From contig CBDCYI010000004.1 in the NCBI GenBank assembly GCA_965224085.1, forward strand, positions 1,024,001 to 1,088,000: a stretch of 64,000 nt of DNA. Reading direction: 5' to 3'. Source of the stretch: Candidatus Marinacidobacterales bacterium (GTDB taxonomy: Bacteria > Acidobacteriota > Vicinamibacteria > Marinacidobacterales > SMYC01). Positions 899-53,750 of this stretch are shown one piece after another. The translations under genes were made by a program, and so were the position numbers. Every line of letters starts with the position of its first letter. Positions within the stretch are counted from its first letter, which is position 1. The notes below the pieces were generated by a model. That model searched no databases. It had not been told where the DNA came from and saw only the letters and a program-made list of their open reading frames with translations.

Positions 899-904
899 TG
901 AGCG

Positions 905-1471: not shown

Positions 1472-1487
1472 AGTTGGTGCCAACCCG

Positions 1488-8085: not shown

Positions 8086-8115
8086 ACCATTCCTCCCGTT
8101 CGATTCGGAACGTGT

Positions 8116-22658: not shown

Positions 22659-24797
22659 ATGAGTATGGAACAACGTTCGCTCTTAAAATTACTCGCGGCG
22701 TGGATCGTCGTTTCGTTTGTTGTCCATGTCCCTTTTCTCGGAGCCCAAGACCCAGAGCCCAGACAGGACGATCCCGAGAACGTGTCGCGTTCAGATCCCC
22801 GGCCCACGCTCACGGAATATGTTTTCGTCGAGGGTAGTCTTCCCTACGTACCAACGGCGAATACGATCGTTTCGAAACTGCCGCTCGCGCTCCGATGGAC
22901 CCCCAATAACGTCGGGATCGTGACGGCGCCGCTCTTCCGGGAGCAATATGACCGCGTCGTCAGCGAGGCGCTCGTCAACGTGAGCAACGTGAATATCCAG
23001 ACCCAGAACGGCGTGCACGACTTTTTCTACATCCGCGGCTTCGATTCACTGTCGAGCGGGCTCATGCTTACCGACGGGGCGGCAGAGCCGGAAGCGACCT
23101 TCTATCAGCTCTATAACGTCGAGCGCGTCGAGGTCCTCAAGGGGCCGGCCGGCTTCCTCTACGGGAGCAATCCCCTTGCAGGCACGGTCAATCTAGTGCG
23201 CAAGCAGCCGACGCCGACGAACGGTCTCGACTTCGGCGCCACCTTCGGCTCATACGACAACTATGAAGGGACCTTCGACTGGAACGCGAGTACGGCGGAC
23301 GGTTCGAAGTCCTTCCGCTTGAACGGGCTTTTTCGCGATCAAGGTAGCTACCGCGACGGCAAAGAAGGCCGCACGCTGGCGATCAATCCCGCCTTTTCCT
23401 GGCAGTTCGATGACACGGGCCGGATGAACGTGAACTTCGAATATCTCGGCGCCGACTTTACGCCCGATAGCGGCCTTCCCGTGCTCGGCGACAACGTCGC
23501 ATCCGTCGATCGGGAGACGAATTACCAATCGCCGCTCGATCGCTCGGAGCAAGACGTTCTGCGTTTTCAAGCGGACTTCGAGAAAGTGCTCTCGCCCTCG
23601 ATCACGATCCGCGACAAGTTCTACCGGCGCGATCTCGATTGGGTTAGCAACGGAACACTCTTCAACGGTATCGAGCCTATGGCGGGTCTCCTCGTGCGTA
23701 CTTTCCTCGAGCTCGACGATCGCCAAGCGCTCACCGGGAATCAGCTAGAAGCGATCTTCTCTTTTGACACCGGGGGGCTGCGGCACAGCCTGCTGACGGG
23801 ATTCGAGGTCACACATCTCACCGACGCGTTCACCCTGGACGTCAACTTGCTCGCCCCCGTCAACCCGCTCGACCCTAGAATCGGCATCGACTCCGCCCCA
23901 TTTCCACTTCCCGGCGCTGGCTTCGCCGGGGATGCGCGCAGTCTCGTCGCCGCGCCTTACGTCATCGACCAGCTCCAATTCGGCGAGAAGTTCCACGTCC
24001 TCATTGGAGGCCGCGTCGACAACATCGACTTCCAGGATCACGCGAGCGGCCGCGAGACGAACGACACCGAGTTCTCACCGATGGTCGGGCTACTCGCGGC
24101 GCCACAACCGGAGCTCTCCATCTACGCGAACTACTCGCGATCCTTTGCGCCTCCCTCGGCTCGCGCCTTCGGTGAGCTCATGCCCGAGCGCAGCACGCAA
24201 TACGAAGTGGGCGTGAAAAAGGGCTTTTCGAGCTTTGGCGCCGAAGCTACTTTGGCCGTCTATCAACTCGAGCGCGACAACATCGCCATTCCGGACGACA
24301 ATGGTTTTACCCAGCAAATCGGAAATCAGCGCTCGCGCGGCATCGAAGTCGATTTCGCTGCCGAGCCCGTGCGCGGCGCACGCGCTTTTGTCTCCTACGC
24401 GTTCAACGACTCCGAGCTCACCAATTTCGCCGAGTCGTTTCTCGTCTCCGTGAACCCGCCGATCGTGTTCGTCGTCGATCGCACGGGCAATCGTGCCGCG
24501 TTCGCACCGAAACATATTTTGAACTTCTGGTTGAGCAAAGACCTTTCCGAGGTTTGGGGGGTCGGCGGCGGCGGCCGGTTCGTGAGCGATCAATTCATTG
24601 CCGAGGACAACGCGTTTACCATCGATGGCGTGATGACGTTTGATGCGATGGTTTACTACGACTTCGGGATGGCGCGCTTGCGGCTGAACCTTCGGAATCT
24701 CACGAATCGCGAGTACTATCTGCGCGGCTTCGGTGCCGCCTCGGTCATCCCAGCGCCGCCTTTTACGGCTTATGTCGGCGTGGACTTTCGACTCTGA
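22659..24797 (+). CDS. TonB-dependent receptor (siderophore-receptor-like)
   Basis: IRGFD, NVERVEVLKGPAGFLYG, PERSTQYEVGVK, NLRNLTNREY, terminal VGVDFRL. Confidence 0.93.
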   Translation: MSMEQRSLLKLLAAWIVVSFVVHVPFLGAQDPEPRQDDPENVSRSDPRPTLTEYVFVEGSLPYVPTANTIVSKLPLALRWTPNNVGIVTAPLFREQYDRVVSEALVNVSNVNIQTQNGVHDFFYIRGFDSLSSGLMLTDGAAEPEATFYQLYNVERVEVLKGPAGFLYGSNPLAGTVNLVRKQPTPTNGLDFGATFGSYDNYEGTFDWNASTADGSKSFRLNGLFRDQGSYRDGKEGRTLAINPAFSWQFDDTGRMNVNFEYLGADFTPDSGLPVLGDNVASVDRETNYQSPLDRSEQDVLRFQADFEKVLSPSITIRDKFYRRDLDWVSNGTLFNGIEPMAGLLVRTFLELDDRQALTGNQLEAIFSFDTGGLRHSLLTGFEVTHLTDAFTLDVNLLAPVNPLDPRIGIDSAPFPLPGAGFAGDARSLVAAPYVIDQLQFGEKFHVLIGGRVDNIDFQDHASGRETNDTEFSPMVGLLAAPQPELSIYANYSRSFAPPSARAFGELMPERSTQYEVGVKKGFSSFGAEATLAVYQLERDNIAIPDDNGFTQQIGNQRSRGIEVDFAAEPVRGARAFVSYAFNDSELTNFAESFLVSVNPPIVFVVDRTGNRAAFAPKHILNFWLSKDLSEVWGVGGGGRFVSDQFIAEDNAFTIDGVMTFDAMVYYDFGMARLRLNLRNLTNREYYLRGFGAASVIPAPPFTAYVGVDFRL

Positions 24798-24818
24798 TTT
24801 GGGGCGTCCGATGAGAGC

Positions 24819-24847
24819 TTGCTTCGATCGTAGTGCGCCACTATCAT
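24819..24847 (+). promoter_or_regulatory. Sigma-70-type promoter, likely leaderless start at 24856
   Basis: TTGCTT-17 nt-TATCAT, 8 nt before ATG, no SD. Confidence 0.45.
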
Positions 24848-24855
24848 CTCCGCCG

Positions 24856-25866
24856 ATGCCTAAAAGAACTTTCTCGATACTCGCACTCGCGCTCATAGCA
24901 CTGCTGTTTCCGGCGTGTGGTGGCGGTGGCGGAGACGAAGATGTGGGCTCGGCTTCGAGTACGCGGAGCTCGCGTTTCATCAGCATCGGCACCGCGCCTC
25001 CCGGAGGCGCTTTTTTCGTTGTCGGCGGCGCGCTCGGTGAAGTGCTCAACCAATACGGACCGGGTTGGGAGGTCACCTCCGAAGCGACGAAGGGTTCGCA
25101 GGAGAACATCCGCCGTCTCGAATCGGGAGAACTCGACATCGCGCTTTCGAACGCGGCCATCACCTATTTCGCTGTGCGTGGCGAAGGGAGCTGGGAGAAA
25201 GCCTACGATCTGCTTTCCGTAATGACGCTCGCGCCGAACGTCGCGATGTTCGTAGCACCCCGGGGCTCGGGCGTCGTGTCGATTGCGGACATCCGCGGCA
25301 AACGCGCGGTCGTGGGTCCGGCGGGCGCCGGGTGGGAATCCTTCGTGCGACCGATCGTCGAGGCGCACGGTGTGACGTATGACGACTTCACGCCTCTCAA
25401 CAATACGCAAGCAGGTGCGGTCGATAACTTGGCGGACGGTTCTGCGGCGGCGGCGTTTCTGGGCGGAGCTGTTCCGACCGCATCGATCGTGCAAGCGTCC
25501 ACGTCACAAGACATCTTGCTCGTGCCCTTCGACAGGGAGGCACGGGCCGAGCTCGTCACCAACTATCCGTTCTTCTACGAGCGCACCGTCCCCGCGGGCA
25601 CCTATCGCGGCCAAGACGAGGACTATCACGGGCTCGACGTCGGCTCGATGCATCTCGTCGCCTCGGCGAAGGCGGACGAAAAGCTGATCTACCGGATCAC
25701 GAAAACCATCTACCAAAACCGCGAGAGCGTCACCGAGAAACATCCCGCCGGCAATTTCATCAACGCCGAGAATGCGGTACGGGATACCGGCGTCGAGTTC
25801 CACTCGGGCGCAATCCGCTTCTATCGCGAGATTGGGAACTGGCCCGAAACGGACGACGAAAGTTAA
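24856..25866 (+). CDS. TAXI-family TRAP solute-binding lipoprotein
   Basis: Lipobox-like FPAC; SIGTAPPGGAFF, ATKGSQENI, VPAGTYRGQ, FHSGAIRFYRE. Confidence 0.92.
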   Translation: MPKRTFSILALALIALLFPACGGGGGDEDVGSASSTRSSRFISIGTAPPGGAFFVVGGALGEVLNQYGPGWEVTSEATKGSQENIRRLESGELDIALSNAAITYFAVRGEGSWEKAYDLLSVMTLAPNVAMFVAPRGSGVVSIADIRGKRAVVGPAGAGWESFVRPIVEAHGVTYDDFTPLNNTQAGAVDNLADGSAAAAFLGGAVPTASIVQASTSQDILLVPFDREARAELVTNYPFFYERTVPAGTYRGQDEDYHGLDVGSMHLVASAKADEKLIYRITKTIYQNRESVTEKHPAGNFINAENAVRDTGVEFHSGAIRFYREIGNWPETDDES

Positions 25867-25873
25867 CCGCTCC

Positions 25874-27811
25874 ATGCCCAGCTCGATCCGCGGGCATCTT
25901 GTTCGAGTTCTCGGGATTGGTCTGTCCCTTTTCGTTCTCGCGGAAGTCAACTACGCCCAGCTCTCACCGCAATCGCAGCTGGCGATCTTTGCCCTCTTCG
26001 GCCTCGTTCTTTGCTTTCTCTTGTTTCCGATACGCTTCGAGCATAGGGCGGCGTGGCTCGTCGACGCGGTCTCGGGCCTCGCGGCCGCGTTCGTTTGTCT
26101 CTACGTCGTCGTGCAAACGGAGCCCGCGTTCCGCTCGCTATGGACCGGCGGCTTGTCGCTCGGCGATCGCGCGGGCGCTGAGTCGGCGCTCGATTACTTC
26201 GTCGGGGGCCTCGGTGTTCTCATCGTGCTCGACGCGACCCGGCGCTGCCTCGGATGGGCGATTCCTGTTCTCGCGTGCACGTTTCTGATCTACGCCCTTG
26301 GCGGCTCCTCGTTTCCCTCCTGGCTCTTCCCCCATCGCGGCTACTCGATCGAGCGCATCGTCGGCCAGACCTTTCTTCACAGCCAAGGTGTGTTCGGCGT
26401 CGCACTCAAGGTGATGTTCACCTACGTGTTCTTGTTCGTGCTGTTCGGGGCCTTTCTCGAGGCAACGGGTGCCACGAGCTTCATCGTCGATTACGCCAAG
26501 CGTCTTTTTCGCCGAAGCCCTGGTGGCGCGGCGAAAGTCGCAGTCTTGAGCAGTGGTCTCATGGGCTCGCTTTCCGGAAGCGCGGTCGCGAACACAGCGA
26601 CGACGGGAACGTTCACGATCCCTCTCATGCGCAGCATTGGCTTCCGCCCGCACATCGCGGCGGGCGTGACAGCGGCGGCGAGCTCCGGTGGCGCGCTCGT
26701 GCCGCCCGTTATGGGCGCGGGCGCCTACATGATGCTCGAACTCGTGACACCGCCGGTTACCTATTTACAGGTCATCCGCGCGGCGCTCATCCCGGCGTTC
26801 ATCTATTACCTCGCCCTCTTTTTGATCGTGCACTTCTATTCGCAGCGCATCGGCGCCGGCAACATCGAGCCGGACGTTGCACCTGTGCCCAAGAGCTCAG
26901 GCTTTCCCTACGAAGGGCTCGTTTTCGTCCTGACGCTAGGTACGCTTGTCGGGTTTCTCGTGGCGGGCTATACCGTGTTTCGATCGGTCAGCCTTGCGCT
27001 CGCGCTCGTGATCGTCCTGAGCTTTTTCAATGAGCGAACGCGTCTCGGCTGGCGATCGGTCGAAAAAGCATTCGTGAAAACGGCGAGAGGCGGCGTCCCT
27101 CTCGTGGCCGCGGCGGCGTCGGTCGGGATCATCCTCGGCGTGGTCACTTTGACCGGTGTCGGCACCAAGTTCCCGTCGACGATCCTGATGATTGCTGGCG
27201 AGAACCTGCTCCTCGCGCTGAGCCTCATCATGGTCGGGTCGATCGTCCTCGGCATGGGGTTGCCGTCCGCGGTCTGCTATCTCTTGATGGCCACGCTCAT
27301 CGGGCCTATCATCGGAAAGCTCGGGGTGGTGCCACTCGCCGCGCATTTTTTCATCTTCTATTTCGGGATGATGTCCATGGTGACCCCGCCGGTCGCACTC
27401 GCGGCCTATGCGGCAGCCTCCATTGCCGACTGCCATATCATGAGCGCAGCACTCGCCGCTTTTCGCTTCGCCCTCGTCGGGTTTACGCTCCCGTTCATGT
27501 TCGTCTTCCGCCCCGAGCTCCTGTTGTTGAGCGCGGATGGATCGGACGTGGGCTTCTTACCTCCCTTTCTGGCTTCGGCGATCGTCATCACCGGGATCGT
27601 ACCCCTGGCCGCGGGTATCGCTGGTTATTTCGGCGGAACGCTCTCGGCCGCCATGCGCGCCGTGCTCATCGTCGCGGCGGCGCTTCTGTTCTACCCCGGC
27701 CGCGATGCGAGCTTCGCGGGTGTCGGGTTGTCGATCGCGAACGCGGCAGGGTTCGTGCTCCTCCTTATCGTCATCGCCCGGCAGTTCGGGAGAAAGGAGA
27801 CCGTGCCATGA
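25874..27811 (+). CDS. TRAP transporter fused 4TM/12TM permease
   Basis: GGAAKVAVLSSGLMGSLSGSAVAN, ASSGGALVPPVMGAGA, LGMGLPS, VTPPVALAAY. Confidence 0.93.
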   Translation: MPSSIRGHLVRVLGIGLSLFVLAEVNYAQLSPQSQLAIFALFGLVLCFLLFPIRFEHRAAWLVDAVSGLAAAFVCLYVVVQTEPAFRSLWTGGLSLGDRAGAESALDYFVGGLGVLIVLDATRRCLGWAIPVLACTFLIYALGGSSFPSWLFPHRGYSIERIVGQTFLHSQGVFGVALKVMFTYVFLFVLFGAFLEATGATSFIVDYAKRLFRRSPGGAAKVAVLSSGLMGSLSGSAVANTATTGTFTIPLMRSIGFRPHIAAGVTAAASSGGALVPPVMGAGAYMMLELVTPPVTYLQVIRAALIPAFIYYLALFLIVHFYSQRIGAGNIEPDVAPVPKSSGFPYEGLVFVLTLGTLVGFLVAGYTVFRSVSLALALVIVLSFFNERTRLGWRSVEKAFVKTARGGVPLVAAAASVGIILGVVTLTGVGTKFPSTILMIAGENLLLALSLIMVGSIVLGMGLPSAVCYLLMATLIGPIIGKLGVVPLAAHFFIFYFGMMSMVTPPVALAAYAAASIADCHIMSAALAAFRFALVGFTLPFMFVFRPELLLLSADGSDVGFLPPFLASAIVITGIVPLAAGIAGYFGGTLSAAMRAVLIVAAALLFYPGRDASFAGVGLSIANAAGFVLLLIVIARQFGRKETVP

Positions 27812-29093
27812 AAAGGTTCGGCTTACTACTTGTCTTCGGCCGTCTTTCCCCAATACAATAAAGAAACTCGGCGTTCCTCAAGAACAGCTGGCCTTCGGAA
27901 ACGGCGACGGAGCTCAACGTGTAGCTCTCGAGATCGTTCTCGGCGATGACGCCGAACTCGGCTCCTGCCTTCATGACCGTCGTCACACCGTCTTCGTTCG
28001 TTACGTAGACCTTCCCGTCCGCGAGCACGGGCGATGAGCTGTAAGTTCCAGCCGCAATGCGCTGCGGGCCCCAAATGACCTCGCCGGACTTCGCATCGAG
28101 ACTGAACGTGACGCCCCGGTCGTTCACGACATAGAGATACTTGCCGTCCGTGACTGGCGTCGGAACGTCCGGACCATTGTTGAAGGACCACAGCAGATGG
28201 CTCGTCGTGATGTCGCCTCGGCCGCCCGCTTTGAGGGCGAGCATGGGGCGGACGCGGGTCGGCGCGTAGATGATGCCGTCCATGACGACCGGAGAGGCAA
28301 CGATGCGGTAGTTGCGATCGTTGTCCGGGTTGAGTCCATCGGCTCGCCAAAGCTCTTTGCCCGTCTGAAGGTCGTGGCCAGTCACAACGTCGCCGCCCGT
28401 CAGCACGATCTCGTACTTCCCGTCATATTCCAGAAGCGCGGGTGTGATGTAGGCGTCCGGGGATTCGCGGATGGCGTCTGTCAGCCGCTCGACCCGCCAG
28501 ACAGTCTTTCCCGTTGCAGCGTCAATGCGCAGGAGATAAGACGGCTCGTCGGTCTTCATGCCGTGTAGCACCGGCATGTAGAGTGCGCCTTGGAACAGAA
28601 GCGGCGACGATGCATAGCCCCAGTTGAGGCCGAACTTACCGTAGTCGGCGGGGATGTTACGCGACCAGAGCTCGTTGCCGTCGAAGTCGAAGGACTTCAA
28701 GATACCTGTCCCTGTCATCACCCAAACGTGCTTGCCATCCGTCACCGGCGACGGGGACGACATGTTCTGCTTTCGCTCACGGTGGTCGCCGCCGCTTAGA
28801 AAAGCCTTCCACTTCACCCGTCCGTCCTTGCGGTCGACCGCCCAAAGATGAAGCTCGCCTTCACCGGCCACGTTCAGGAAAACGGTCTCGCCCCAGACGA
28901 TGGGTGTCGCACCCGTACGGTCCGGCATGGGGATCCGCCACGAAACATTCTTCGTCGTGCTCCAATCGCTGGGAAGTCCGCGCTCGCCGCTAACACCGTC
29001 GCGCGTCGGGCCTCGCCAATGAGGCCAGTTCTCGGCGAAAGCGGAGCTAGCGAGTGTCGTGACGACTATGAGTAAGGATAATAGTGTCTTCAT
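27771..29093 (-). CDS. PQQ-like/BamB-like beta-propeller protein
   Basis: Signal peptide, [35 protein letters not shown]. Confidence 0.88.
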
Positions 29094-29134
29094 TCGTTCG
29101 TGTACCTCCGGACCGCCTCGAGGAATATTAACGC

Positions 29135-30684
29135 TCATTCGGAGATCCCGTAAACATGCGTCAGCGTGCGAATGACAAGAAGTCCGTTCGAAGCCGCGGG
29201 CGTGGACAGCACTGTCCCGTCCACGGTGTTTTTAGCGAGAAGCTCGTACTCGTCTCCCGCGCGCACGACGAAGGTCTCCCCTTCCTCGTTGGTGAAGTAG
29301 AGTTGGGCGAGCTCGAGTGCCCCCACTGATAGTCCGGATCGTAGAACCAGCCTACGTTGAGGACTCCGATGTCTTTTCTCCAAAGAAGGTTTCCGTCGAC
29401 GTCGTAGCAAAGCAAGAGACCGACCGAGCCGAGCACGGCCACGACATGCTCACCGTCGGTCACTGGCGTCGCGTTGGCTTGGCTCGACTTGGAATGCCGC
29501 TTCGTTCCCGGTTCACCCTTGTGAAGCTCGCGCTCCCAGGCGATCGCGCCGTCTTTGGTGTTCAAGGCATATAGTAGCCAGCGATGTTCTGAGAGATCTT
29601 CGATAGGAGTGACGTCTCCGTAGAGGCCGGTCCGAAAGGTGTCGTTCCCGGCGCCGCTTACCGCGGTCAGAACAAAGATGCGCTCGCCCCAAATGACGGG
29701 GCTCGACACGCTGAAGCCGGGAAGCTCTGTTTTGAAACGGATGTGCTTCCCTGCTTCCGCATCCCACTCGATCGGTACCCCCTGCGCGTCAGCGATCCCG
29801 GATCGGTTTGGACCGCGGAAACCCGGCCACGGAGCGGCCGGAGCGCGTGCCACGGGGGCGACGTCTGTCGCGACGACGACGTTCGGGCGGTCGATGGGGG
29901 CCGCCTCTCCGCGTTCCTCGGACTCGTCGAGCGGGCGAAAGGCAGTCGACGTCTCGCCCTGGCGGAGGACGACGCGCTCAATCATGCCGCCACGGCCTCC
30001 AAAAAAGACTTCGGCGTCGCTGCCGACGACTTCAAAGTCATGCTCGCCCCTCGGGCGGAGCCGCGCTGAGAAATCTCCAGACACTACGAGGGCGCCGTCG
30101 CGCAGAGCAACCGTGACATAGCGCTGCTCGGATTCGTTCTCATAGCGGCCGACGAAGCGCTCGAGCTCTGCGCGCGAGAGCACGACGATGGCCGCGGGCG
30201 TACCTTCTTGAACGTCGGCGTCCGCTATCAGAGCGCGGAGGTCTCCCGCCGCAATCTCGAGAGCACGGTCATAGGCCGGGCGCGTCACGCCTCCCGTCGC
30301 GAGAGCGGCCTCGACGAGCGTACGGTCTTCGTTCGCGACGCCCAAACGCAGAACAGCGTCCGCGCCGGGCGAGCCGCGCGAGAGAAGAAACCGCGCGACG
30401 TCGAAATGCTTGCCGCTCAAAGCACGGCTGAGCGCGCTCATCTTGTAAAAGCTGTCTTCGATGTCGAGGCGCGCGTCGTGCTCCACGAGGAGCGTCACCA
30501 TGTCGAGGTCGCCTTTTTCCGCAGCGAAGAAAAGTGCGGTGGCGCCGTAGCGATTCCCCGCGTCGACGTCGATGCCTTGCTCGATGAGGGCCCGCGCTCT
30601 TTCGAGATCCCCTTGGCGCGCGGCCTCGTGAAGGTCCTCGCCGTTTTGGAACAGAAGAAGCGCCAGGAGCCATGCCATGCTCAC
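29135..30684 (-). CDS. Ankyrin repeats + linker domain + beta-propeller (internal deletion/frameshift ~29310)
   Basis: LHEAARQGD, GATALFFAAEKG; PWPGFRGP; jumps from WGHSSSP to the last blade LYFTNEEG...STPA..NG.L.IRT. Confidence 0.78.
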
Positions 30685-32096
30685 TCTCCTCCGAAGCAGT
30701 AGAGAATATTGCGGGTGCGTATGTAGAGGCGTCCATCCGCAATGGCGGGTGTCGCGTGGATCAAATCGTCGAGGTCATTGACCGCGAGCACTTCTAGATC
30801 GCCCGCCGGACTGAGCACGGCGACTTTCCCGAGCTCGCTTGCCATGAAGATCTTGCCGTCCGCCGCCACGGGCGAGGCGTAATAGTTGTCGACGGCGCCT
30901 TTGAGGCGTCCCTGCGCGATGATACCCCCTGTTTTTGGCTCGAGCGTCGTTACGATCCCGCCGTCGTTCACCATGTAAAGAACATCCATGTAAAGAAGAG
31001 GCGACGGGAGCTGGGGGACCCGTTTGTGATAGGTCCACACCACGTTCTGCTCCGTCATGTCGCCTTCACCGCCCACACGGATCCCGAGAATGGCGTTCTT
31101 CGACGCGAGCGCGGCGAGGTAGTAGTCATACTCTGCCGCGTCGAGCCGGCCGTCGGCGCTCAAGTCAACGAAGCCGAACCACGACCGCACATGTCCCTCG
31201 GCCTCGTCTCGAGCGAGGAATCCGTCATCGTTCGGGTCGAGTTCCTGGAACGGAGACGCTACGACGTTGCGCCCCGGTTGATTCTCCGGTGTGCCATAGC
31301 CGTTGATGTAGAGCATGTCGCCGGCGAGAACGGGCGTCGACTTCATCTCGAAAGAAAGACCGCTCACCCACCAGAGCTTCTCACCGGTCTTCGCGGCGTA
31401 GGAGGTTAAAAGAAACGAACCGGGCACGAGGATCTCGAGCGAGCCGTCCTTCGCCTCGTGGAGCACGGGCGTCGAGTGGCCGCTCTTCGCTTCGGGGCGG
31501 CGCTTTTGCCAGACGACTTTCCCATGCCTCTTGTCGAGCGCGATGATGTAGGAGTTCGTGGCCTGATCGCAGACGAGGACGACGTGGTCGCCCGCGAGGA
31601 TGGGTGAGGCGCCCATCCCGTAGATATTGTCGAAGTCTTCGACGGCGAATCGCCATAGCTCCTCGCCTTCGAAGTCATAGGCAAGAAGCCCGAAGTCGGG
31701 AAAAAAGACAAAGACGCTCTGGTCGTCGACCACAGGGCTCGGTGATGCGGAGTTGTTGCGGTCGTCGAAGTTCGTGACGCGCGTGCGGGGTGCTTCCCTT
31801 CGCCACAAGATCTCGCCGGTTTCGCGATCGAGGCAATACGTGAAGAGTGTCTCGTCTTCGAACGCCGTAAGGAAGATCCGTTCTTCTGTGACGATTGGAG
31901 ATGAATGCCCCGGAGGAAGCGGCGTCTTCCACACGACGTTTTGGGACGGACCGAAATGAAGCGGAAGCTTTTCGGTGTCGACGACGCCTGTTCCATTCGG
32001 CCCGCGAAAACGCGACCATTCGGATGCGAGAAGCGTCGAGGGAAGTACGAAAACGACAAAGACGAAACGAACGAGGCTGTGGCAGCCGAGCGCCAT
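30681..32096 (-). CDS. Beta-propeller protein with EF-hand insert
   Basis: SEWSRFRGP; DPNDDGFLARDE and DLSADGRLDAAE EF-hand loops; ASPVAADGKIF. Confidence 0.88.
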   Translation of the reverse strand: MALGCHSLVRFVFVVFVLPSTLLASEWSRFRGPNGTGVVDTEKLPLHFGPSQNVVWKTPLPPGHSSPIVTEERIFLTAFEDETLFTYCLDRETGEILWRREAPRTRVTNFDDRNNSASPSPVVDDQSVFVFFPDFGLLAYDFEGEELWRFAVEDFDNIYGMGASPILAGDHVVLVCDQATNSYIIALDKRHGKVVWQKRRPEAKSGHSTPVLHEAKDGSLEILVPGSFLLTSYAAKTGEKLWWVSGLSFEMKSTPVLAGDMLYINGYGTPENQPGRNVVASPFQELDPNDDGFLARDEAEGHVRSWFGFVDLSADGRLDAAEYDYYLAALASKNAILGIRVGGEGDMTEQNVVWTYHKRVPQLPSPLLYMDVLYMVNDGGIVTTLEPKTGGIIAQGRLKGAVDNYYASPVAADGKIFMASELGKVAVLSPAGDLEVLAVNDLDDLIHATPAIADGRLYIRTRNILYCFGGE

Positions 32097-32127
32097 CAGG
32101 GCACCCTCCTTTCTCTGGCTGCGCAAT

Positions 32128-32185
32128 CCTACCCCAGAAGGGCCTACCCCAGAAGGGCCTACCCCAGAAGGGCCTACTCCAGAAG
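32128..32185. repeat. 15-bp tandem repeat (CCTACCCCAGAAGGG)x~4
   Basis: Three near-exact units plus a variant overlapping the DUF3179 stop codon. Confidence 0.9.
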
Positions 32186-33121
32186 CGTCGTGTCCGGGTT
32201 GTTCAAGCTGAAGTTGTACCAAAACGTGTCGAAGCCGGTGAGCGCTTCGACTTTACCGAAACTGCTCGCCTCTGGATCGAAAACAGCGCCCGTCGCTTTT
32301 TCCGTCCACGTTCCGTCGCGCTCCTCGAATCCTGCTTCGGAGACGAAAGCATGGGTCGACTGAAACATCGAGCTCCCGCGCTTGCGGAAAAGAAACACGG
32401 AGTGGCCGGCTTCGAGTGTTACGGTCTTTCCGTTCTCGAGATCCTTCTGCCGAACGGCATAGGCGACATTGTCCAAGTGGAACGCGAAAATGGGCGCTTT
32501 CGTCGCGAGACGATCGTCCTTAGCAACTTGTCCTCGATAGCCTTCGGGGTCGTGGAAATATTGTTGGTAACCGTTGTCAGCGTGCTCTTCACCGTCGACA
32601 GAGAGCACGAGTGTGTCGGGGTGCTTCGCGCGCCAATGACGCCACGAAACCCTCTCGCCGACAGGAAGCTCGATGAGCTTGTTCCCGGCCAATTCACCGG
32701 CTACGGCCGCGCCTTCCATGATCGACCAGTAGGTATCGGTCTCTTGGTCTTGCATGATAGGCGAGCTGTTCTTGAGCCCGCCAGACGCTTCGAAGTTCAC
32801 GGTCTTCCCTGCGTAATCACGGCTGTACACGACAGCCGCATTACCAAGTGGTCACCACACAGCAGCGAAGTTGGTCTCGCCGATTCTGTCGTTGACGATT
32901 TCGTGACTGTTCAGCAAGTTGAGGCTGTAAGCGCGCGCTTGCCCGTCGATGACGACGCCGAGAACCCAGGCTCTGGGCGGCAGCTTCGCTTCGGAAGCGG
33001 GCACGTAGGTCGGCTCGCTGATGGCCGCGATCTGCCCACGTGGGATCACGCGCTTGAAGCCTTCGGGCTCCTGGACTCCGACCATCGCCGCCATCGCGCC
33101 GAAAAATGCGACAGGTATCAT
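32174..33121 (-). CDS. DUF3179-like exported selenoprotein (U-P-L-G)
   Basis: QIAAISEP, ARAYSL..L..HEIVND, AVW-TGA(32852-54)-PLGNAA, FEASGGL, MQDQETDTYWS, DTFWY in one frame; strong hairpin 3' of the TGA. Confidence 0.9.
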
Positions 33122-33287
33122 GTACGTATTGTCGTGAGTCTCGCTCTCTTGCAGGTGTGAACTTGATAACACTTTCGACGAGTTCGAAGCACCCGGCCAT
33201 TTCTTTGACGGCGCTCACCCGGCAAAAGATAATGGGGCCTGCACTTCGGACGAATTCAGGCATCGGTTCACGAAAGCATAAGAAGAC

Positions 33288-35486
33288 ATGTTCAGAAAAA
33301 CTTTTTTCACGATATTCGTGATGTTCACGGGAGGCACGGGGGCGGGATCTTTCGCCGGCTCAGCCAGTGAAGATTGGACGGATTGGCGAGGCCCGGGCCG
33401 AGACGGCCATTCCTCGGAGACCGGCCTTCCCACGAGCTGGTCTCGCGATGGCGACAACCTCGCCTGGCGGGCTCCTTATGGCGGCCGCTCGACGCCCATC
33501 ATTCTCGGCGACCACCTCTATCTGCAAAACGCTGCTGGAGAAGGCGCGAGCCGGCAGGAGCGCATCATGTGCTTCGACGTCGAGACGGGCGAGCTCTTGT
33601 GGGAGCATCGGATCAACATCTACTTGAGCGACGTACCGCCTCACCGCGTAGGCTGGGCCTCCCCGGTCGCGGACGCGACGACGGGCAACCTCTATGTCTA
33701 TACCGTCGGTGGCTCCGTTTACGGGTTCACCGCCGAAGGCGCCATTTTGTGGAAGCGCTCGCTAACGGAAGATTTCGGCCTCATCACGACCCATGGCGGC
33801 CGCACCGCCTCACCAATCATCGATGGCAACCTTCTCATCGTGAGCGGTCTGAGCTCCGGTTGGGGCGAGCAAGCGCGCGGCGGCCAGCGTTTCTTCGCTT
33901 TCGACAAAGCCACGGGGGAAACGCAATGGGTCAGCTCTCCCGGTGGCCGCCCTTATGACACGACCTACGCGCCGCCTGTCATCGCCGACGTCGACGGCGT
34001 GCGACTTCTCATCACGGGCGGCGGCGATGGAGCGATGCACGCGATTGAGCCTCAGACGGGCGAGTCGGTGTGGCGCTTCGAATATTCCAAGCGTGGCATC
34101 AACACCGGCGCTGTCATCAAGGACAACATCGCTATCGTGAGCCAGGGTGAGGAGAACCTTCGCACGAGCCAAATGGGTCTCGTGGCCGCCATCGATGCCA
34201 CCACGCGCGGCACGATCGACGTCGACAGCGCGAAATGGTCCGTGGGCGGCTTTCTCGGGGGCTATTCTTCACCCGTCCTCGACGGCGACCACTTCTACCA
34301 GATCGACAACAGCGCCAACTTAAAGGCGTTCGACGTGGGGAGTGGCGCCGAGGAATGGACCTTGAACCTCGGCACCATCCAGCGAGCGTCCCCGGTTCTC
34401 GCTGACGGCAAGCTCTATGTCGGCACTGTCAACGGCACTTTCTACATTTTGGAGCTTTCGGCCGACGGTGCGTCGATCCTCGACCGAGACGAGCTGACGG
34501 CCGGTGACGAGTTCGAAGAGATTTACGCCTCGGTCGCGATCGCGGATGGCCGCGTCTATCTGGCCTCGGCGCAAGCGCTCTACGCGATCGGCTCGGCGCG
34601 CAAGGAATCGGCGTCCAAGCCGCGTTCCACCGCTCCGAGTGGTTCGCCCGGCGCGCCGGCCTCGGTTCAAGTCGCACCCACGGACGTAACCCTCGAGCCG
34701 GGTGGCACCGTCGAGCTCGAAGCGCGTCTGTTCGACGCGGAAGGACGTTTCGTGCGGGTCGTGCGGATCGGCGAAGCAACGTGGTCGCTCGAAGGTGTGG
34801 ATGGTGCGGTCGATGGCGGGCGCTTCATAGCGGCTGCGGGCAGGGCGCCCCAAGGTGGGAAGATCCACGCGAGTGTAGGCGAGCTATCGGGCTCGGCGCG
34901 CGCGCGCGTGATTCCGCCTCTTCCATGGAGCGAGAATTTTGACGCGCTCGAGAGTGTCCCGCGGCCGTGGATCAACGCGACCGGAAAGTTCGAAATTCGC
35001 GAGGTCAGCGGCGAAAAGGTGCTCGTGAAGAAGGCCGACAATCCCTTTCTACGCCGCGCGCGTGTGTATATCGGGCCTTCGGACTGGTCCGATTACACCG
35101 TGCAAGTGGATGTGTTGGCGACTCGTCAGCGCCGTCAAATGGGACATGCCGGCGTCATCGCGCAGCGTTATCTGTTGATGCTACTCGGAAGTCACCAGCG
35201 ACTCGAGCTGCAGTCGTGGCAGCCCGAGACCGAGCGCACCGCGAAAGTCTCGTTCCCGTGGGAGCCGAACACGTGGTACCGCATGAAGCTCGAAGTCGCG
35301 ACGCTCGACGACGGCTCCGTGCGCGCCCGGGGCAAAGTGTGGCCACGCGGTGAGGCCGAGCCTTCCGAGTGGCATGTCGAGCGGCGCGACGAGAGTCCCA
35401 ACCGTCAAGGGAGTCCCGGCATCTTCGCCGACGCGACACCGACCGAAGTGTTTATCGACAATCTCGAAGTACGAGCCAACGAATGA
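33288..35486 (+). CDS. Beta-propeller with C-terminal Ig-like and lectin/LamG-like extensions
   Basis: [28 protein letters not shown]; VAPTDVTLEPG; WYRMKLEV...RGKVWP. Confidence 0.85.
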   Translation: MFRKTFFTIFVMFTGGTGAGSFAGSASEDWTDWRGPGRDGHSSETGLPTSWSRDGDNLAWRAPYGGRSTPIILGDHLYLQNAAGEGASRQERIMCFDVETGELLWEHRINIYLSDVPPHRVGWASPVADATTGNLYVYTVGGSVYGFTAEGAILWKRSLTEDFGLITTHGGRTASPIIDGNLLIVSGLSSGWGEQARGGQRFFAFDKATGETQWVSSPGGRPYDTTYAPPVIADVDGVRLLITGGGDGAMHAIEPQTGESVWRFEYSKRGINTGAVIKDNIAIVSQGEENLRTSQMGLVAAIDATTRGTIDVDSAKWSVGGFLGGYSSPVLDGDHFYQIDNSANLKAFDVGSGAEEWTLNLGTIQRASPVLADGKLYVGTVNGTFYILELSADGASILDRDELTAGDEFEEIYASVAIADGRVYLASAQALYAIGSARKESASKPRSTAPSGSPGAPASVQVAPTDVTLEPGGTVELEARLFDAEGRFVRVVRIGEATWSLEGVDGAVDGGRFIAAAGRAPQGGKIHASVGELSGSARARVIPPLPWSENFDALESVPRPWINATGKFEIREVSGEKVLVKKADNPFLRRARVYIGPSDWSDYTVQVDVLATRQRRQMGHAGVIAQRYLLMLLGSHQRLELQSWQPETERTAKVSFPWEPNTWYRMKLEVATLDDGSVRARGKVWPRGEAEPSEWHVERRDESPNRQGSPGIFADATPTEVFIDNLEVRANE

Positions 35487-36928
35487 AAGGCAAGACGAGG
35501 AAAAAGCTCGTTTGGGCCACCGCTCTCTCCGTTCTCGCGGCCATGGTCGCACTCAACGTCCACGCCGACGATTCCAAAGACGGTGATTGGACCATGTGGG
35601 GCGGCACCGCCGACCGCAACATGGTGTCCTCGATGACCGGCCTTCCCCTCGAGTGGGATGTCAATGCCGGCACCAACGTGAAATGGATCGCCGCGCTCGG
35701 CTCACAGACCTATGGGAACCCTGTTGTGGCGAACGGCAAAGTGTTTGTCGGAACGAACAATGAGGCGCTTTACGACAAAGAGATGCCGGGCGACAAAGGC
35801 GTTCTCGTCGCGATCAACGAGGCCGACGGTAAATTCCTTTGGCAAATGGTCAGCGACAAGCACCCTGCGGGCCGCGTCAACGATTGGCCGTTCCAAGGCG
35901 TTTGCTCCTCGCCGCTCGTCGATGGCGACGTGCTCTACTACGTCACCAATCGAGGTGAAGTGCTCGCGCTCGACACCGAAGGCTTTGTCGACGGCGAGAA
36001 CGACGGACCGTATCAAGATGAGCAATATAAAAGCCCGCATGACGGGGACATCATCTGGAAGTTCGACATGATGGAAGAGCTCGGCGCCTTCCCACACAAC
36101 ATGTCGAACTCCTCACCCGTGATGTATGGCGATTTGATTTTCGTGAACACTTCGAATGGACACGACGAAAGCCATGTCAACATCCCGTCTCCTATGAGCC
36201 CCGACCTGGTAGCACTCAACAAGAACACGGGCGAGCTCGTGTGGGAGAACAGCCCCGTGGGCGAGGCCATTCTTCACGGGCAATGGTCCTCCGCCGCTGT
36301 CGGTGACCTCGGTGGCGTCGCTCAAGTCGTGATGGGCGAAGGCGATGGCTGGGTACGCGGCTACGTAGCCGAGACCGGTGAAAAGTTGTGGGAGTTCGAC
36401 AGCAACCCGCCCGGGTCTACTTGGCCGAAGACGCGCAACAATATCATTAGTACACCAGTGCTCTACGATGACAAGGTCTATATCGCAAACGGTCAGGACC
36501 CGGAGCACGGCGAAGGGCTGGGCCACTTCTACGCTATCGACGCGACCAAGCGCGGCGACATCACCCAAAGCGGAAGCGTCTGGCACTACGACAAGATCCG
36601 CCGCTCGATCTCGACGCCGGCGATTCATGAGGGCATCATCTACATGCCGGATTTCAGCGGTTTCTTCCATGCGCTGAACGTCGAGACCGGAGAACCGTAC
36701 TGGGTGCACGACACTTTCGCGGCAGTCTGGTCGTCGCCCATGGTCGTCGACGGCAAGATCTATCTCGGCGACGAAGATGGCGATGTCGTCGTGCTCGCCC
36801 CAGGTAAAGAAGAAAAAGTTCTCGTCGAGATGAACCTCGGGAGCTCCGTCTACGGGACAGCGGTTCCCGCGCACGGCGTTTTATACATCGCGAGCCGGAA
36901 TCAGCTGTTCGCGCTCGCCAACGAATAG
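35483..36928 (+). CDS. Acidic beta-propeller protein
   Basis: DWTMWGGTADRNMVS, GSQTYGNPVV, GRVNDWPFQGVCSSP, GQDPEHGEG; ATGA overlap with the upstream gene. Confidence 0.87.
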   Translation: MKGKTRKKLVWATALSVLAAMVALNVHADDSKDGDWTMWGGTADRNMVSSMTGLPLEWDVNAGTNVKWIAALGSQTYGNPVVANGKVFVGTNNEALYDKEMPGDKGVLVAINEADGKFLWQMVSDKHPAGRVNDWPFQGVCSSPLVDGDVLYYVTNRGEVLALDTEGFVDGENDGPYQDEQYKSPHDGDIIWKFDMMEELGAFPHNMSNSSPVMYGDLIFVNTSNGHDESHVNIPSPMSPDLVALNKNTGELVWENSPVGEAILHGQWSSAAVGDLGGVAQVVMGEGDGWVRGYVAETGEKLWEFDSNPPGSTWPKTRNNIISTPVLYDDKVYIANGQDPEHGEGLGHFYAIDATKRGDITQSGSVWHYDKIRRSISTPAIHEGIIYMPDFSGFFHALNVETGEPYWVHDTFAAVWSSPMVVDGKIYLGDEDGDVVVLAPGKEEKVLVEMNLGSSVYGTAVPAHGVLYIASRNQLFALANE

Positions 36929-36931
36929 AGC

Positions 36932-38041
36932 GTGGAATCTTTCGAGTACCGGCCCGAGCCGCGGGTAGTGTTCGGCCGCGGCGCTCTTGACCGCCTCGGC
37001 GAGCTCGCGAATGAGCTCGGCTTCGAGCGCACGGTGTTGACGGCCGATCCCGGCCTACGCGCGACCCCACACGTCGATCGCGCCCTCGGCTTGCTCGATC
37101 GCGCCGGTGTCGAAGTCTTCGTCTTCAGCGATTTCGGCGAGAACCCCGATACCGACATGGTCGAGCGCGGACACGTGTTCGCCGCCTCGAAGGACATCGA
37201 CTCGTTCATCGGCCTAGGAGGCGGAAGCTCGATGGACTGTGCCAAGGGCGTGAACTTGCTTCTCACCAATGGCGGGGTCATCCGTGACTATGTCGGCTTC
37301 GCAAAGAACCGAGAGCCGCTTCTGCCTATGATCGGCGTACCGACGACGTCGGGGACCGGAAGCGAGGCGCAATCCTACGCGCTCATCTCGGATGCGAAGA
37401 CTCATGTCAAGATGGCGTGTGATCTCAGAGAACGCTTTCACGTAGCTATCCTGGACCCCGAGCTCACTGTAACCCAGCCGGCGGCCGTCACCGCAACCAC
37501 CGGCTACGATGCCCTTGCCCATGCGGTCGAGACCGCGGTAACGACGAAGAGAAACGCTTTGTCCGATCTCTACTCCCGTGAAGCTTTTCGATTGTTGAAC
37601 GAAAACTACGCTCGCGTCCTCGAAGAGCCCGACGACCTCGAAGCGCGCAGCGCGATGCAGCTCGGCGCTTTCTACGCGGGCGTCGCGATCGAGAACTCGA
37701 TGCTCGGCGCGACCCATGCTTGCGCCAACCCTCTGACCCAACGCTACGGAACCGCGCACGGTCGCGCCATCGCGATGTGCCTGCCGAGCGTGGTGCGCTT
37801 CAACGCGGATGAGGTGGCGCAGGATTACGCGGCACTCCACCAAAGTGGCGAGTCGCTCGCGAGCCGTCTCGAGGAGCTTGCCGAGCTCGGAGGCCTTCCG
37901 CGCCGCCTCCGCGATGAGGGAGTGCCGGAAGAGGATCTTCCGGGCCTCGCCCGTGCGGCAACCAAGCAGTGGACCGGAAACTTCAACCCGCGGCCCTTCG
38001 ACGAAACGGCCGCCCTGGAGATTTACCGATGCGCCTACTGA
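36932..38041 (+). CDS. Iron-containing alcohol dehydrogenase
   Basis: GLGGGSSMDCAK, PTTSGTGSE, DALAHAVE, GATHACANPL, HGRA. Confidence 0.92.
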   Translation: MESFEYRPEPRVVFGRGALDRLGELANELGFERTVLTADPGLRATPHVDRALGLLDRAGVEVFVFSDFGENPDTDMVERGHVFAASKDIDSFIGLGGGSSMDCAKGVNLLLTNGGVIRDYVGFAKNREPLLPMIGVPTTSGTGSEAQSYALISDAKTHVKMACDLRERFHVAILDPELTVTQPAAVTATTGYDALAHAVETAVTTKRNALSDLYSREAFRLLNENYARVLEEPDDLEARSAMQLGAFYAGVAIENSMLGATHACANPLTQRYGTAHGRAIAMCLPSVVRFNADEVAQDYAALHQSGESLASRLEELAELGGLPRRLRDEGVPEEDLPGLARAATKQWTGNFNPRPFDETAALEIYRCAY

Positions 38042-39144
38042 TAATCCTCGCATTCCTGGCGGACGCGTCGCAAGAGACCGTTGCCCCGAAAGACACGTGG
38101 AATCAGTTTCGCGGAAGCCCGATGCGCACGGGACGCTCGGCCGCCGAGATCCCCGACGAGCTGAAGCTTCTCTGGAGCTTCGAGGCCGGCTTTTCCATTG
38201 ACTCCTCCGCCGCCATCGTCGACGACGTCGTCTATATGACCGCGCTTCCGGGGCTCGTCGCCGCGCTCGCCCTCGACGACGGCTCGGTCCGCTGGAAGCG
38301 CGATTTCGGTGAAGAGGAAGACCGGTTCGGGGAATCCTCGCCGATGGTGGTCGAGGGCACCGTCTACGTTGGCGACTTGCTCGGCGTCGTGCACGCTTTC
38401 GACGCCGCGAGCGGCGAGACCCGGTGGACATTCGAGACCGACGCGGAAATCAAAGCTTCTCCCGTCGTCATCGGCGACCACTTGCTCGTCTCGTCCTACG
38501 ACGAGCACCTATACGCGCTCGACCGCGAGACGGGCGAGCTTCAGTGGACGTTTGAAAGCCTCGGGCCTCTTCACAGCACGCCCGGATATGACGGCGAGCT
38601 CGTTTACGTGACGGGATGCGATGCCTTGCTACGCGGCATCGATCTCGAAGACGGCACCGAGAAGCTACAGATGGACTCGGGCGCTTATACAGCCTCCTCT
38701 CCGGCTCTAGTCGACGGCATCGCTTATTACGGAACGTTCAACAACGACGTGCTTGCCGTCGATCTGAAAAACAAAAAATATCTCTGGCGCTATGAGCACC
38801 CGACCCGCCACTTCCCTTTCTATTCCTCAGCCGCGGTGGCAAATGGCATCGTCGTCATTGGCGGCCGCGACAAGATCGTGCACGCGATCGATCAAGAAAC
38901 GGGCGCCTCGCTCTGGACCTACCGTACGGGCGCACGTGTCGAGTCCTCCCCTGTCATCGCGGGCAACCGCGCCTATGTCGGCTCCGGCGACGGCCGCTTC
39001 TACGTTTTCGAGCTCACGACCGGCGAGAAAGTGTGGCAGTTCGACGCCGGCGCTCCGTTCGTCGCCTCACCCGCGCTCGCCGATGGACGGGTCGTCATCG
39101 GCTCCCAGGACGGCATTCTCTACGCCTTCGGGGCGCAGAACTGA
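38029..39144 (+). CDS. BamB-like beta-propeller
   Basis: TWNQFRG, repeated SSP/ASP...G...W blades. Confidence 0.87.
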   Translation: MRLLIILAFLADASQETVAPKDTWNQFRGSPMRTGRSAAEIPDELKLLWSFEAGFSIDSSAAIVDDVVYMTALPGLVAALALDDGSVRWKRDFGEEEDRFGESSPMVVEGTVYVGDLLGVVHAFDAASGETRWTFETDAEIKASPVVIGDHLLVSSYDEHLYALDRETGELQWTFESLGPLHSTPGYDGELVYVTGCDALLRGIDLEDGTEKLQMDSGAYTASSPALVDGIAYYGTFNNDVLAVDLKNKKYLWRYEHPTRHFPFYSSAAVANGIVVIGGRDKIVHAIDQETGASLWTYRTGARVESSPVIAGNRAYVGSGDGRFYVFELTTGEKVWQFDAGAPFVASPALADGRVVIGSQDGILYAFGAQN

Positions 39145-39313
39145 ATCTGCAGGCTCAGCTGAAGTGACTATTCGGCAAAGGAGTCCCTCCCGTTTTTCAC
39201 GGAGAATCTCGCGCTCGACCGAGACATCCCGTAGGCTAGGGGTGCGCACAGGGGAGGGTGATGACGGACTTTCTAAGAAAACGGAGCGGCATAAGTGCGA
39301 CGGCCGTTCTGGC

Positions 39314-39650
39314 CTGGGACCCAATGTCCCCGAGCCGGTGGCGAGCGATCTGACGGTCGAACCCGCTTCGCCGAGGTACTCCTTTCCTTCGGAATTCCGC
39401 ATCGTCTCCTCACCGATTCTAGGCGCGCTCCACCACGATTACCGCTTGGCACGCGCCGCCTGAGTAGGCGAAGCTCTCAGCGGCCGTCTTCGAGACGTCT
39501 GCACTCCAGGACCGCTTTCCGCGGTACGACCGCACCATCGCGTTCGCGCCGTCGGCAACACATGCGTCGAGCTCATTTTCGTCGGCGCCAGGCGATCGAA
39601 AACCTCCTTCCCGGTGCCCGGCCACCGCATGCTTTTTTTTGCGGACGATA
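39314..39650 (+). mobile_element. Orphan right-end fragment of the IS481-like element (near-identical to 48512-48848)
   Basis: 337-bp copy with integrase tail LGALHHDYRLARAA and terminal TTTTTGCGGACGATA. Confidence 0.85.
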
Positions 39651-39796
39651 GGTGGCATCACGTCGGCGACTCCAAGATCGGGCTGAGCCACTTGCCGCGC
39701 GTGGCGATCGATCTCGGGCGCATCTACCGGGGGCTCAGAGCCGCGCGGCGCCGGTGACGGTGGCGCGGTGGGTCTTCGATTTCAGGTTTTTGTTCT

Positions 39797-48848: not shown

Positions 48849-48894
48849 GGGCTCGCTTGGTACAGAGCCGATTGTCGTTGTCGAACCGGCAATC

Positions 48895-49250: not shown

Positions 49251-49414
49251 GTCGTCGCACTTGCCGCGAGCTACTTCCCTGCCCACCGTGCCAGCAACGT
49301 CGACCCGGTCTCGGGCCTTCGCTCGGAGTGAGTATAGGGCGAAGTCGCATTTCCTCTTTTGACCGGAAGCGCCACATATTGGTTACAGGTGTACTTATTG
49401 CCACGCTTCGGTTC

Positions 49415-50712: not shown

Positions 50713-50784
50713 AACCTATACTAACGCTCTCGTTTCTGCATTGTTGTGCTACGCTCGCATCGTTCGAGAGGAAGCCTCCATTAC

Positions 50785-53702: not shown

Positions 53703-53750
53703 GATCCCTCCGCTTGTGAGGTTCCGGAGTCTACTCGTATACTCCCCATC

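Follow-up and report, generated by a model that had tools for sequence, protein, structure and literature searches.

The window analyzed here is a stretch of 64,000 nucleotides from a Candidatus Marinacidobacterales bacterium (contig CBDCYI010000004.1, positions 1,024,001 to 1,088,000), and it carries a module of four genes that is conserved among Acidobacteriota and apparently undescribed. The module encodes two β-propellers (pD and pE), an iron-type alcohol dehydrogenase (Fe-ADH), and a third propeller (pF); the propellers of the stretch are named pA to pF by their left-to-right position. An earlier note on this DNA had proposed a larger envelope system, in which six propellers and the Fe-ADH act with a DUF3179 selenoprotein, a TonB-dependent receptor (TBDR) and a TAXI-TRAP transporter. 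The core that is conserved consists of the rightward operon. It is a smaller system than the one proposed and a different one, with the DUF3179 gene, the TRAP transporter and the TBDR of the window as lineage add-ons. In every system-level membership test that was run the module fell outside the known systems, and how it works is something that we infer from its gene links. The core genes are the following (PQQ, pyrroloquinoline quinone):

33288..35486, + strand: pD, core; exported eight-bladed PQQ-fold propeller with an Ig-like domain and an all-beta C-terminal domain that is weakly concanavalin/LamG-like
35483..36928, + strand: pE, core; exported propeller, the most conserved member, with invariant polar loops
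36932..38041, + strand: Fe-ADH, core; cytoplasmic iron-type alcohol dehydrogenase of a distinct clade
38029..39144, + strand: pF, core; exported regular propeller, Pfam Beta-prop_ACSF4 above cut-off

The rightward series starts at 33288 with pD (732 aa), followed by pE, Fe-ADH and pF. The genes are tightly packed: pD and pE overlap by 4 nt, pE and the Fe-ADH gene are 3 nt apart, and the Fe-ADH gene and pF overlap by 13 nt. GTDB was scanned with an alignment of pD that was narrow and reached close relatives only. At least 531 matches were confirmed, and the best 80 loci were examined with flanks of up to 10 kb; counts for the core genes, DUF3179, the TRAP permease and the TBDR refer to the loci with enough flank, and all others are out of the 80. 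pE adjoins pD in 78 of 79 testable loci, the Fe-ADH gene is found in 53 of 62 and pF in 48 of 53, and the complete pD-pE-FeADH-pF core is present in 43 of 53 loci, spanning three classes (Vicinamibacteria, Blastocatellia, and Terriglobia). The earlier note had named conservation of the neighbourhood in Acidobacteriota and two other phyla as one check of its proposal, and within Acidobacteriota the four-gene core does co-occur. The closest named relatives of this locus are Vicinamibacteria (Ca. Marinacidobacterales). Nearly all loci (78/80) are labelled Acidobacteriota or unclassified bacteria, and the two labelled Clostridia and Acidimicrobiia are probably mis-binned. In six loci a methyltransferase is inserted between pD and pE. 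Beyond Acidobacteriota there are full-length pD relatives of up to ~30% identity, and plasmid searches with pD and pE gave, among the matches listed, only generic propellers at ~22-26% identity.

A small membrane protein that matches no Pfam or NCBIfam model was observed near the core in one locus (L002, 15867-16337, +) and in six others (seven by tblastn). It occurs in Vicinamibacteria and Terriglobia and is a candidate exporter or anchor.

Eleven genes were identified in the stretch from the ORF map and family scans: the TBDR, the TAXI binding protein, the fused TRAP permease, six PQQ_2-type propellers, DUF3179 and the Fe-ADH. The features other than the core are the following (SECIS, selenocysteine insertion sequence):

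29135..30678, - strand: pB, common accessory; fusion of ankyrin repeats and a propeller, broken in this sequence
30681..32096, - strand: pC, accessory; propeller with two EF-hand-type loops
27771..29093, - strand: pA, accessory; plain WRGP propeller, alternative start at 29138
32174..33121, - strand: DUF3179 selenoprotein; exported, W-U-P, UGA at 32852-32854; lineage-specific add-on
32808..32848, - strand: SECIS-like hairpin just 3' of the DUF3179 UGA
22659..24797, + strand: TBDR of the siderophore-receptor subfamily; neighbour, not core
24856..25866, + strand: TAXI-TRAP binding protein with a lipobox-like Cys; neighbour, not core
25874..27811, + strand: fused TRAP permease; neighbour, not core

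The leftward series runs from 33121 through DUF3179, pC (EF-hand), pB (ankyrin) and pA (plain), and 167 nt (33121-33288) lie between the two divergent operons. pC and pB are 2 nt apart, DUF3179 and pC are spaced by 77 nt that hold a 15-nt tandem repeat, and pA lies tail-to-tail with the block of TBDR, TAXI binding protein and fused TRAP permease, with an overlap of 41 nt. The gene map of the earlier note therefore holds as drawn: the sequence has two divergent operons from about 33200 with all of the genes named, genes that overlap or nearly abut, a leftward operon that converges on the TonB receptor and TAXI transporter, and a single internal junction. This junction, at 29302/29304, lacks 578 nt relative to a locus (L005) that is ~92% identical to the window over 28111-39163, where collinearity stops; pB is broken in this sequence because of the absent 578 nt. 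A promoter/terminator scan stayed near the shuffle level (4 vs 2.6; 23 vs 16.7).

Conservation falls away outside of the rightward operon. A pB-type propeller orthologue is found in 45/80 loci and a separate ankyrin gene in 44/80, as pB is split in many relatives into a stand-alone ankyrin protein and a propeller; pC is found in nine loci and pA in eight. DUF3179 was detected in 2 of 74 loci, and even a 90%-identical locus (L004) lacks it; the TRAP permease and the window's TBDR occur in 1/45 and 1/42, respectively. By these counts the selenol redox partner and the TonB/TAXI uptake route, both of which the earlier note counted in, find no support as members of the system. The one locus that has the TBDR-TAXI-TRAP block (L001) lacks DUF3179. 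The proposal of a conserved undescribed module thus survives for the four core genes and not for the rare transport and selenoprotein genes or for pA and pC. The neighbours that do recur are an SSS symporter with a DUF3311 partner (30/80), which lies on opposite sides of the core in two classes, and a different TonB-type barrel (24/80).

The Fe-ADH (PF00465) has the GGGS motif and the metal ligands D193, H197, H262, and H276, the latter kept in 95% or more of 54 sequences, and it carries Asn266 where relatives carry His. Its best NCBIfam model is ErcA (NF041833), at 260.5 bits against a cut-off of 550, and the gene that follows it is pF rather than the co-cistronic kinase of ErcA/YiaY. Among longer relatives of the enzyme (the best 120 of 357 matches), 16 are fused to one family with the aldehyde dehydrogenase (ALDH) fold, 14 to one HemN-like radical S-adenosylmethionine (SAM) family, four to pF, and 86 to other partners. 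The first three kinds include the top 32 of the 120 listed, and an HxxANP signature is present in 33 of these 34 fused Fe-ADHs and in none of the other 86. In a quick-search tree of 70 domains (19 operon, 30 fused and 21 other, with four short-match fused sequences omitted) the operon and fused forms make one clade with a Shimodaira-Hasegawa-like approximate likelihood ratio test (SH-aLRT) value of 100, and the ALDH fusions need at least two origins. The four fusions with pF look like read-through or frameshift products and are for this reason counted as adjacency only; one of them (P0406) holds a signal-like stretch at the junction, and a join of this type is named Planctomycetales among the fused relatives listed.

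The fusion partners are also found as separate genes beside the core. In L065, a gene that lies 4-5 kb away from pD is 45-47% identical to the fused ALDH part. For the fused radical SAM part, L014 and L022 have full genes near pD at 52-56% identity, and L020 has a partial match at its edge. In these last three loci the radical SAM gene stands alone near pD, and in two of them it lies beside a halogenase-like flavoprotein. In L065 two partner genes lie divergently upstream of pD: the one that faces pD matches EhpF (PDB 3HGU) with an E of 1e-41, and close to it is the gene for the ALDH-fold reductase, with a peptidase gene between them. On plasmids, the names given to homologues of the EhpF-like protein are arylcarboxylate reductase, AMP-binding or phenazine biosynthesis protein, and searches with the ALDH-fold protein match genes close to these homologues on the same plasmids. 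The ALDH-fold partner is far below the cut-offs of catabolic ALDH models. A phenazine cluster of Pantoea has, next after its EhpF-like gene, a gene to which this partner aligns over its full length (E 9e-29 and 3e-33; 25-27% identity). GriC and GriD are presumably homologues of EhpF and EhpG. The position after ehpF in the phenazine cluster is named ehpG in the available part of PMC11278526, and the available part of PMC10179220 has GriC adenylating an aryl acid and GriD reducing the acyl-AMP to the aldehyde. Judged by these sequence comparisons, a stronger clue than the partners proposed earlier comes from the association of the Fe-ADH with an acid reductase of the EhpF/EhpG type and with the HemN-like radical SAM family.

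Two further arrangements of these genes were observed. In L014 (2-2229, -) and L022 (2-2088, -) the HemN-like radical SAM gene is followed by a CmlS-like flavoprotein gene that is cut off by the locus edge, and this flavoprotein has weak matches to the QhpG, LodB, and GoxB quinone-cofactor maturase models. A Halalkalicoccus plasmid (L081, 10508-14566) has an SSS symporter, an EhpF-like and an EhpG-like gene in one run near an amine oxidase, with no annotated propellers.

The W-x-x-[WF]-[RG]-G motif, which reads literally WRGP in pA and pD only, is present in all six propellers, as is a hydrophobic N-terminus. The call of export was made from hydropathy, in which the best 10-residue stretch scored 2.0-2.9 compared to 0.66 for the Fe-ADH. 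A vicinal Cys-Cys and the HDxWD/WD[YFW] motifs are the catalytic motifs of PQQ-dependent alcohol dehydrogenases (PQQ-ADHs), and they are absent from all six, including the full-length form of pB from L064. The signal-like N-termini, the tryptophan motif and the missing Cys-Cys had all been read correctly in the earlier note. It had also singled out pE as acidic, which the composition does not bear out (D+E of 13.7% vs 11.4-15.3% in the other propellers). PQQ_2 is found in all six. The PQQ-ADH model TIGR03075 (cut-off 480) gave 28.6-98.7 bits in five of them and no match for pB, TIGR04528 (acido-empty-quinoprotein group A, cut-off 650) gave 34-83 bits, and the best score for the BamB model TIGR03300 (cut-off 285) was 163.9 bits, for pF. 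Lipobox Cys residues were not found in the N-termini of the propellers. Their lengths are 370-480 aa compared to about 560-600 aa for PQQ-ADHs, and they are ~20-25% identical to each other compared to 50-70% to their own orthologues. By the models and motifs tested, the propellers classify as neither BamB nor PQQ dehydrogenases, the two identities that the earlier note had named as refuting its proposal.

An AlphaFold 2 model of pD (predicted local distance difference test score (pLDDT) 96, predicted template modelling score (pTM) 0.95) has an eight-bladed propeller followed by two all-beta domains. Its best VIA structure matches are YxaL (Z 37), BamB (33-34), Rv3035 (33), and tetrathionate hydrolase (31), followed by the PQQ-ADHs PedH, XoxF, and QH-ADH (28-29). 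In sequence searches with pD, 5005 of 8000 scored candidates were at E<=0.001 with the named matches from Acidobacteriota, and 22,192 clusters at this threshold make up a very large family. The earlier description of pD as propeller-Ig-lectin-like stands for the propeller and Ig parts; the lectin-like label has weak matches only, as Laminin_G_3 was found in the C-terminal domain of 3/27 members (best E 0.006) and in one Atlas row at 0.92. Atlas clusters for this C-terminal part are mostly from Planctomycetota and Verrucomicrobiota (scores 0.94-0.98), a PDB sequence search with it gave nothing useful, and in structure searches with the whole of pD the rows were taken by propeller or mixed matches. 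When the blades were assigned by hand from the model, the top-face loops (142 residues) had a conservation of 0.60 and 14 conserved polar residues, compared to 0.46 and four in the bottom loops (61 residues). The loops of pE include the invariant GRVNDWP, SNGxDESH, ILHGQW, WPKTRN, and NGQDPEHGEG, with many invariant His, Asp, Glu, Asn, and Arg residues as well as an invariant Trp in the positions equivalent to the top loops of pD. The conserved polar loops of pD and pE would suit a binding or catalytic site, but a protein interface would look alike. A complex prediction for the pD propeller and pE, folded without alignments, scored 0.00, which is evidence neither for nor against an interaction.

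Among the accessory propellers, eight of nine pC orthologues hold at least one EF-hand-type loop. The first such loop of pC (31157-31230, -) has a Pro at position 2 and a weak lanmodulin match (E 0.0017), and the Pro is kept in one of the nine orthologues. Broken paralogues of the WRGP-type propeller family, one with N-terminal membrane segments, lie at 5851-8467 (-) of the window.

We tentatively propose, as one possibility, that an aromatic ligand or cofactor of the exported propellers is made in the cytoplasm by a route from acid through aldehyde to alcohol, together with a radical SAM step. This reading was chosen because it is the simplest that uses all of the gene links. It builds on the conserved operon, the signal-like N-termini that the propellers have and the Fe-ADH does not, the Fe-ADH fusions and the EhpF-like and reductase genes of L065, all of which are seen directly. 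In the proposal, pD-pE-FeADH-pF would be the core of a split-location small-molecule system. An EhpF/GriC-like enzyme would adenylate an aromatic or heteroaromatic carboxylic acid in the cytoplasm, an EhpG/GriD-like enzyme would reduce the adenylated acid to the aldehyde, and the Fe-ADH, if it works in this direction, would reduce the aldehyde to the alcohol. The radical SAM enzyme may methylate or decarboxylate the ring. The product would reach the periplasm and may be bound there by pE, pD, and pF at their conserved top faces, either as a ligand or in the role of a redox cofactor that replaces PQQ. DUF3179, pA, pB, pC, and the local transporters would be exchangeable accessories.

Several observations weigh against this proposal. 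The EhpF-like, EhpG-like, and radical SAM genes are absent from the 64-kb window, and within 10 kb of pD they occur in only one, one and three of the 80 loci. The flank covered at L065, which holds the EhpF/EhpG pair, has no Fe-ADH or pF gene, and similar pairs also occur without propeller orthologues, as in Halalkalicoccus. The Fe-ADH is missing from 9/62 loci and is therefore not obligatory beside pE. Additionally, 38 of the 80 loci are from Pyrinomonadaceae, so the locus counts are not independent.

Other explanations account for parts of the same evidence. It is rather doubtful, though conceivable, that the module serves catabolic uptake, with the propellers binding or processing in the periplasm a substrate from outside, a TonB receptor and an SSS or TRAP transporter importing the product, and the Fe-ADH and ALDH-fold enzyme oxidizing it in the cytoplasm. 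Some TonB-type receptor and some secondary transporter do recur near the core, SSS on opposite sides in two classes, the weak matches of pD allow a carbohydrate-binding domain, and the archaeal Halalkalicoccus locus, in which an SSS gene joins an EhpF/EhpG-like pair, looks catabolic. However, different lineages have non-orthologous transporters, and those of the window are rare. The ALDH-fold partner is EhpG-like and far under the cut-offs of catabolic ALDH models, and the HemN-like radical SAM fusion fits biosynthesis better, a judgment made on the ground of what class C radical SAM enzymes do. A structural or assembly role is unlikely; in this view the propellers would serve as non-catalytic scaffolds in the envelope, in the manner of BamB or YxaL, with the Fe-ADH as a sensor like ErcA/YiaY. 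The appeal of this view is that the closest folds (YxaL, BamB, and Rv3035, Z 33-37) are non-enzymes, that ankyrin, EF-hand, and Ig additions suit interaction, and that one usual His of the Fe-ADH is replaced by Asn; ErcA, the best NCBIfam match (260 bits), is regulatory in Pseudomonas according to the available part of PMC12997753. Against this, the ErcA score is far under its cut-off, no kinase is conserved beside the Fe-ADH, the metal ligands and GGGS are intact, and the enzyme fusions are left unexplained.

The idea that the propellers are atypical PQQ or lanthanide quinoproteins working on scavenged PQQ, with the Fe-ADH and an ALDH downstream as in the ped/exa cluster, is improbable. The fold is shared (Z 28-29 to PedH, XoxF, and QH-ADH), pE has invariant Asp, Glu, Asn, and Trp in its loops, and ped clusters join a PQQ-ADH, an ALDH and an Fe-ADH in the available part of PMC12997753. 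The propellers are, however, shorter than PQQ-ADHs, lack all of the catalytic motifs and score 29-99 against 480 with TIGR03075 (pB not at all), no cytochrome c partner was found among the conserved neighbours, and the TBDR is not PqqU. It is more improbable still that these genes are a cluster of paralogues from a huge propeller family that were kept together by descent beside an unrelated alcohol dehydrogenase. The size of the family and the differing number of leftward propellers between loci agree with this view, but across three classes the core genes keep the order pD-pE-ADH-pF, with overlaps between genes, whereas every other neighbour varies, and the members resemble their own orthologues far more than each other.

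The proposed small-molecule system can be compared with known ones. As in phenazine tailoring by EhpF/EhpG and in grixazone synthesis by GriC/GriD, the core-linked partners elsewhere are full-length homologues of EhpF and of the ALDH-fold gene that follows ehpF; in contrast, there are no phenazine core genes among the conserved neighbours, the partner genes lie outside of the window, and they are combined with exported propellers, an Fe-ADH and a radical SAM enzyme of the HemN-like kind. The Pseudomonas ped/exa cluster likewise has periplasmic eight-bladed PQQ-fold proteins beside a cytoplasmic Fe-ADH for which ErcA is the best NCBIfam match, but the propellers here are shorter and without the Cys-Cys and aspartate motifs, a conserved cytochrome c or kinase is not nearby, and the Fe-ADH is below the ErcA cut-off in a clade of its own. 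The non-catalytic propellers BamB, YxaL, and Rv3035 are the best structural matches to pD, and pF is regular and of similar size; the propellers here differ in being below the BamB cut-off, in having no lipobox Cys, in their long conserved polar top loops, in the extra Ig and all-beta domains, and in sharing an operon with a dehydrogenase. PQQ and mycofactocin-type systems follow a similar logic, in which a small biosynthetic set with a radical SAM enzyme serves a large family of client proteins. They differ in that neither a precursor peptide nor a radical SAM enzyme of the SPASM type was observed here, where the enzyme is HemN-like.

The DUF3179 gene has an in-frame TGA at 32852-32854, and read-through joins its two DUF3179 halves in one frame. 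Twelve of the 120 homologues listed (of 396) span the site of the UGA and carry Cys (eight), Ser (three), or a gap (one), and the other 108 start after it. The W-TGA-P and a similar hairpin are kept in L005 and L064. In a 50-nt piece the SECIS-like hairpin has -20.9 kcal/mol and a z of -3.15, with 0/200 shuffles as good, and the z is -2.28 and +0.24 for longer pieces of 66 and 91 nt. From these features of the sequence it is very likely that the protein carries selenocysteine (Sec). DUF3179 is already known as a selenoprotein family and is not new: it is tabulated with UxxC/T in the available parts of PMC9312934 and PMC13188914, and the gene here shares with the family (PF11376) a Pfam match on both sides of the UGA and the Sec/Cys pair. 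It differs from that tabulation in having U-P-L-G or U-P-L-A, and in the weak Rieske-like fold of its model. The AlphaFold 2 model (pLDDT 90.8) gave chains that are Rieske-type by title or family in 36 of the top 37 VIA rows, at Z<=5.5 (below the trust level), an rmsd of ~3 Å and ~91 aligned residues. The Rieske cluster ligands CxH...CxxH are absent, and the sole Cys-equivalent is the Sec site; the protein is possibly a cluster-less Rieske-derived fold that carries Sec. Foldseek gave no fold, and a PDB sequence search gave nothing useful. A scan for a tRNA or Rfam element had no match within the 64-kb window, which covers only part of the host genome. Right after the DUF3179 stop (32128-32185) a 15-nt unit is repeated at least three times and may mark an insertion point, since the gene is absent from the close relative L004.

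The transport neighbours were assigned from their model scores. The TBDR scored 252 bits with TIGR01783 (cut-off 223.5) and 36.8 with the PqqU model NF041535 (cut-off 1200), and the TAXI-TRAP proteins scored 250.5 with TIGR02122 (cut-off 84) and 530 with TIGR02123 (cut-off 321). Acidobacteria with PqqU have no PQQ synthesis genes, according to the available part of PMC12124388, a finding that we count in favour of the proposed small-molecule system. To the right of the core, a 339-bp direct repeat (98.8%; 39314-39652 and 48512-48850) brackets ~9 kb with coaX, panC, and panB. A link of the core to these pantothenate genes was considered and rejected, as L005 is collinear only up to 39163 and the genes of L064 at this place are different ones. 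Since pF in L064 directly precedes the genes of window 49390-54220, the ~9-kb block is an insertion or an assembly join. A microcompartment link was likewise dropped, as the available part of PMC4207490 has no such locus and no gene for a shell protein stood out in the conserved neighbourhood. Two transposase-like ORFs lie at 59918-63183 in a stretch of lower GC. At 46-2084 (+) there is a row of what we take to be radical SAM, GNAT-like, and AIR-synthase-like genes, apparently frameshifted or gapped.

No description of the pD-pE-FeADH-pF operon was found in open-access PMC or bioRxiv text, a coverage that leaves out most subscription journals. A term search in supplements of the essential-gene papers on Planctopirus (PMC10632474) and Verrucomicrobium (PMC12283558) gave no match. 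Databases routinely label these propellers "BamB" or "PQQ-binding-like", and no function for them was found in the literature searched. A much bolder extension of our proposal, which we regard as distinctly unlikely, is that Acidobacteriota (probably Planctomycetota and Verrucomicrobiota too) make a new aromatic redox cofactor with an EhpF/EhpG-type reductase, the Fe-ADH and a HemN-like radical SAM enzyme, and that pD, pE, and pF load or use it. The large "PQQ-like" WRGP propeller family would then be its clients and the Rieske-derived selenoprotein an optional electron partner. The fixed four-gene core, the distinct Fe-ADH clade and the fusion partners give a concrete handle on these proteins, with named enzymes and predictable chemistry, in a phylum that is widespread in soils and waters. 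A cofactor as the product would explain a very large protein family and add a new cofactor system, and a catabolic module would mark a widespread route for an undescribed substrate.

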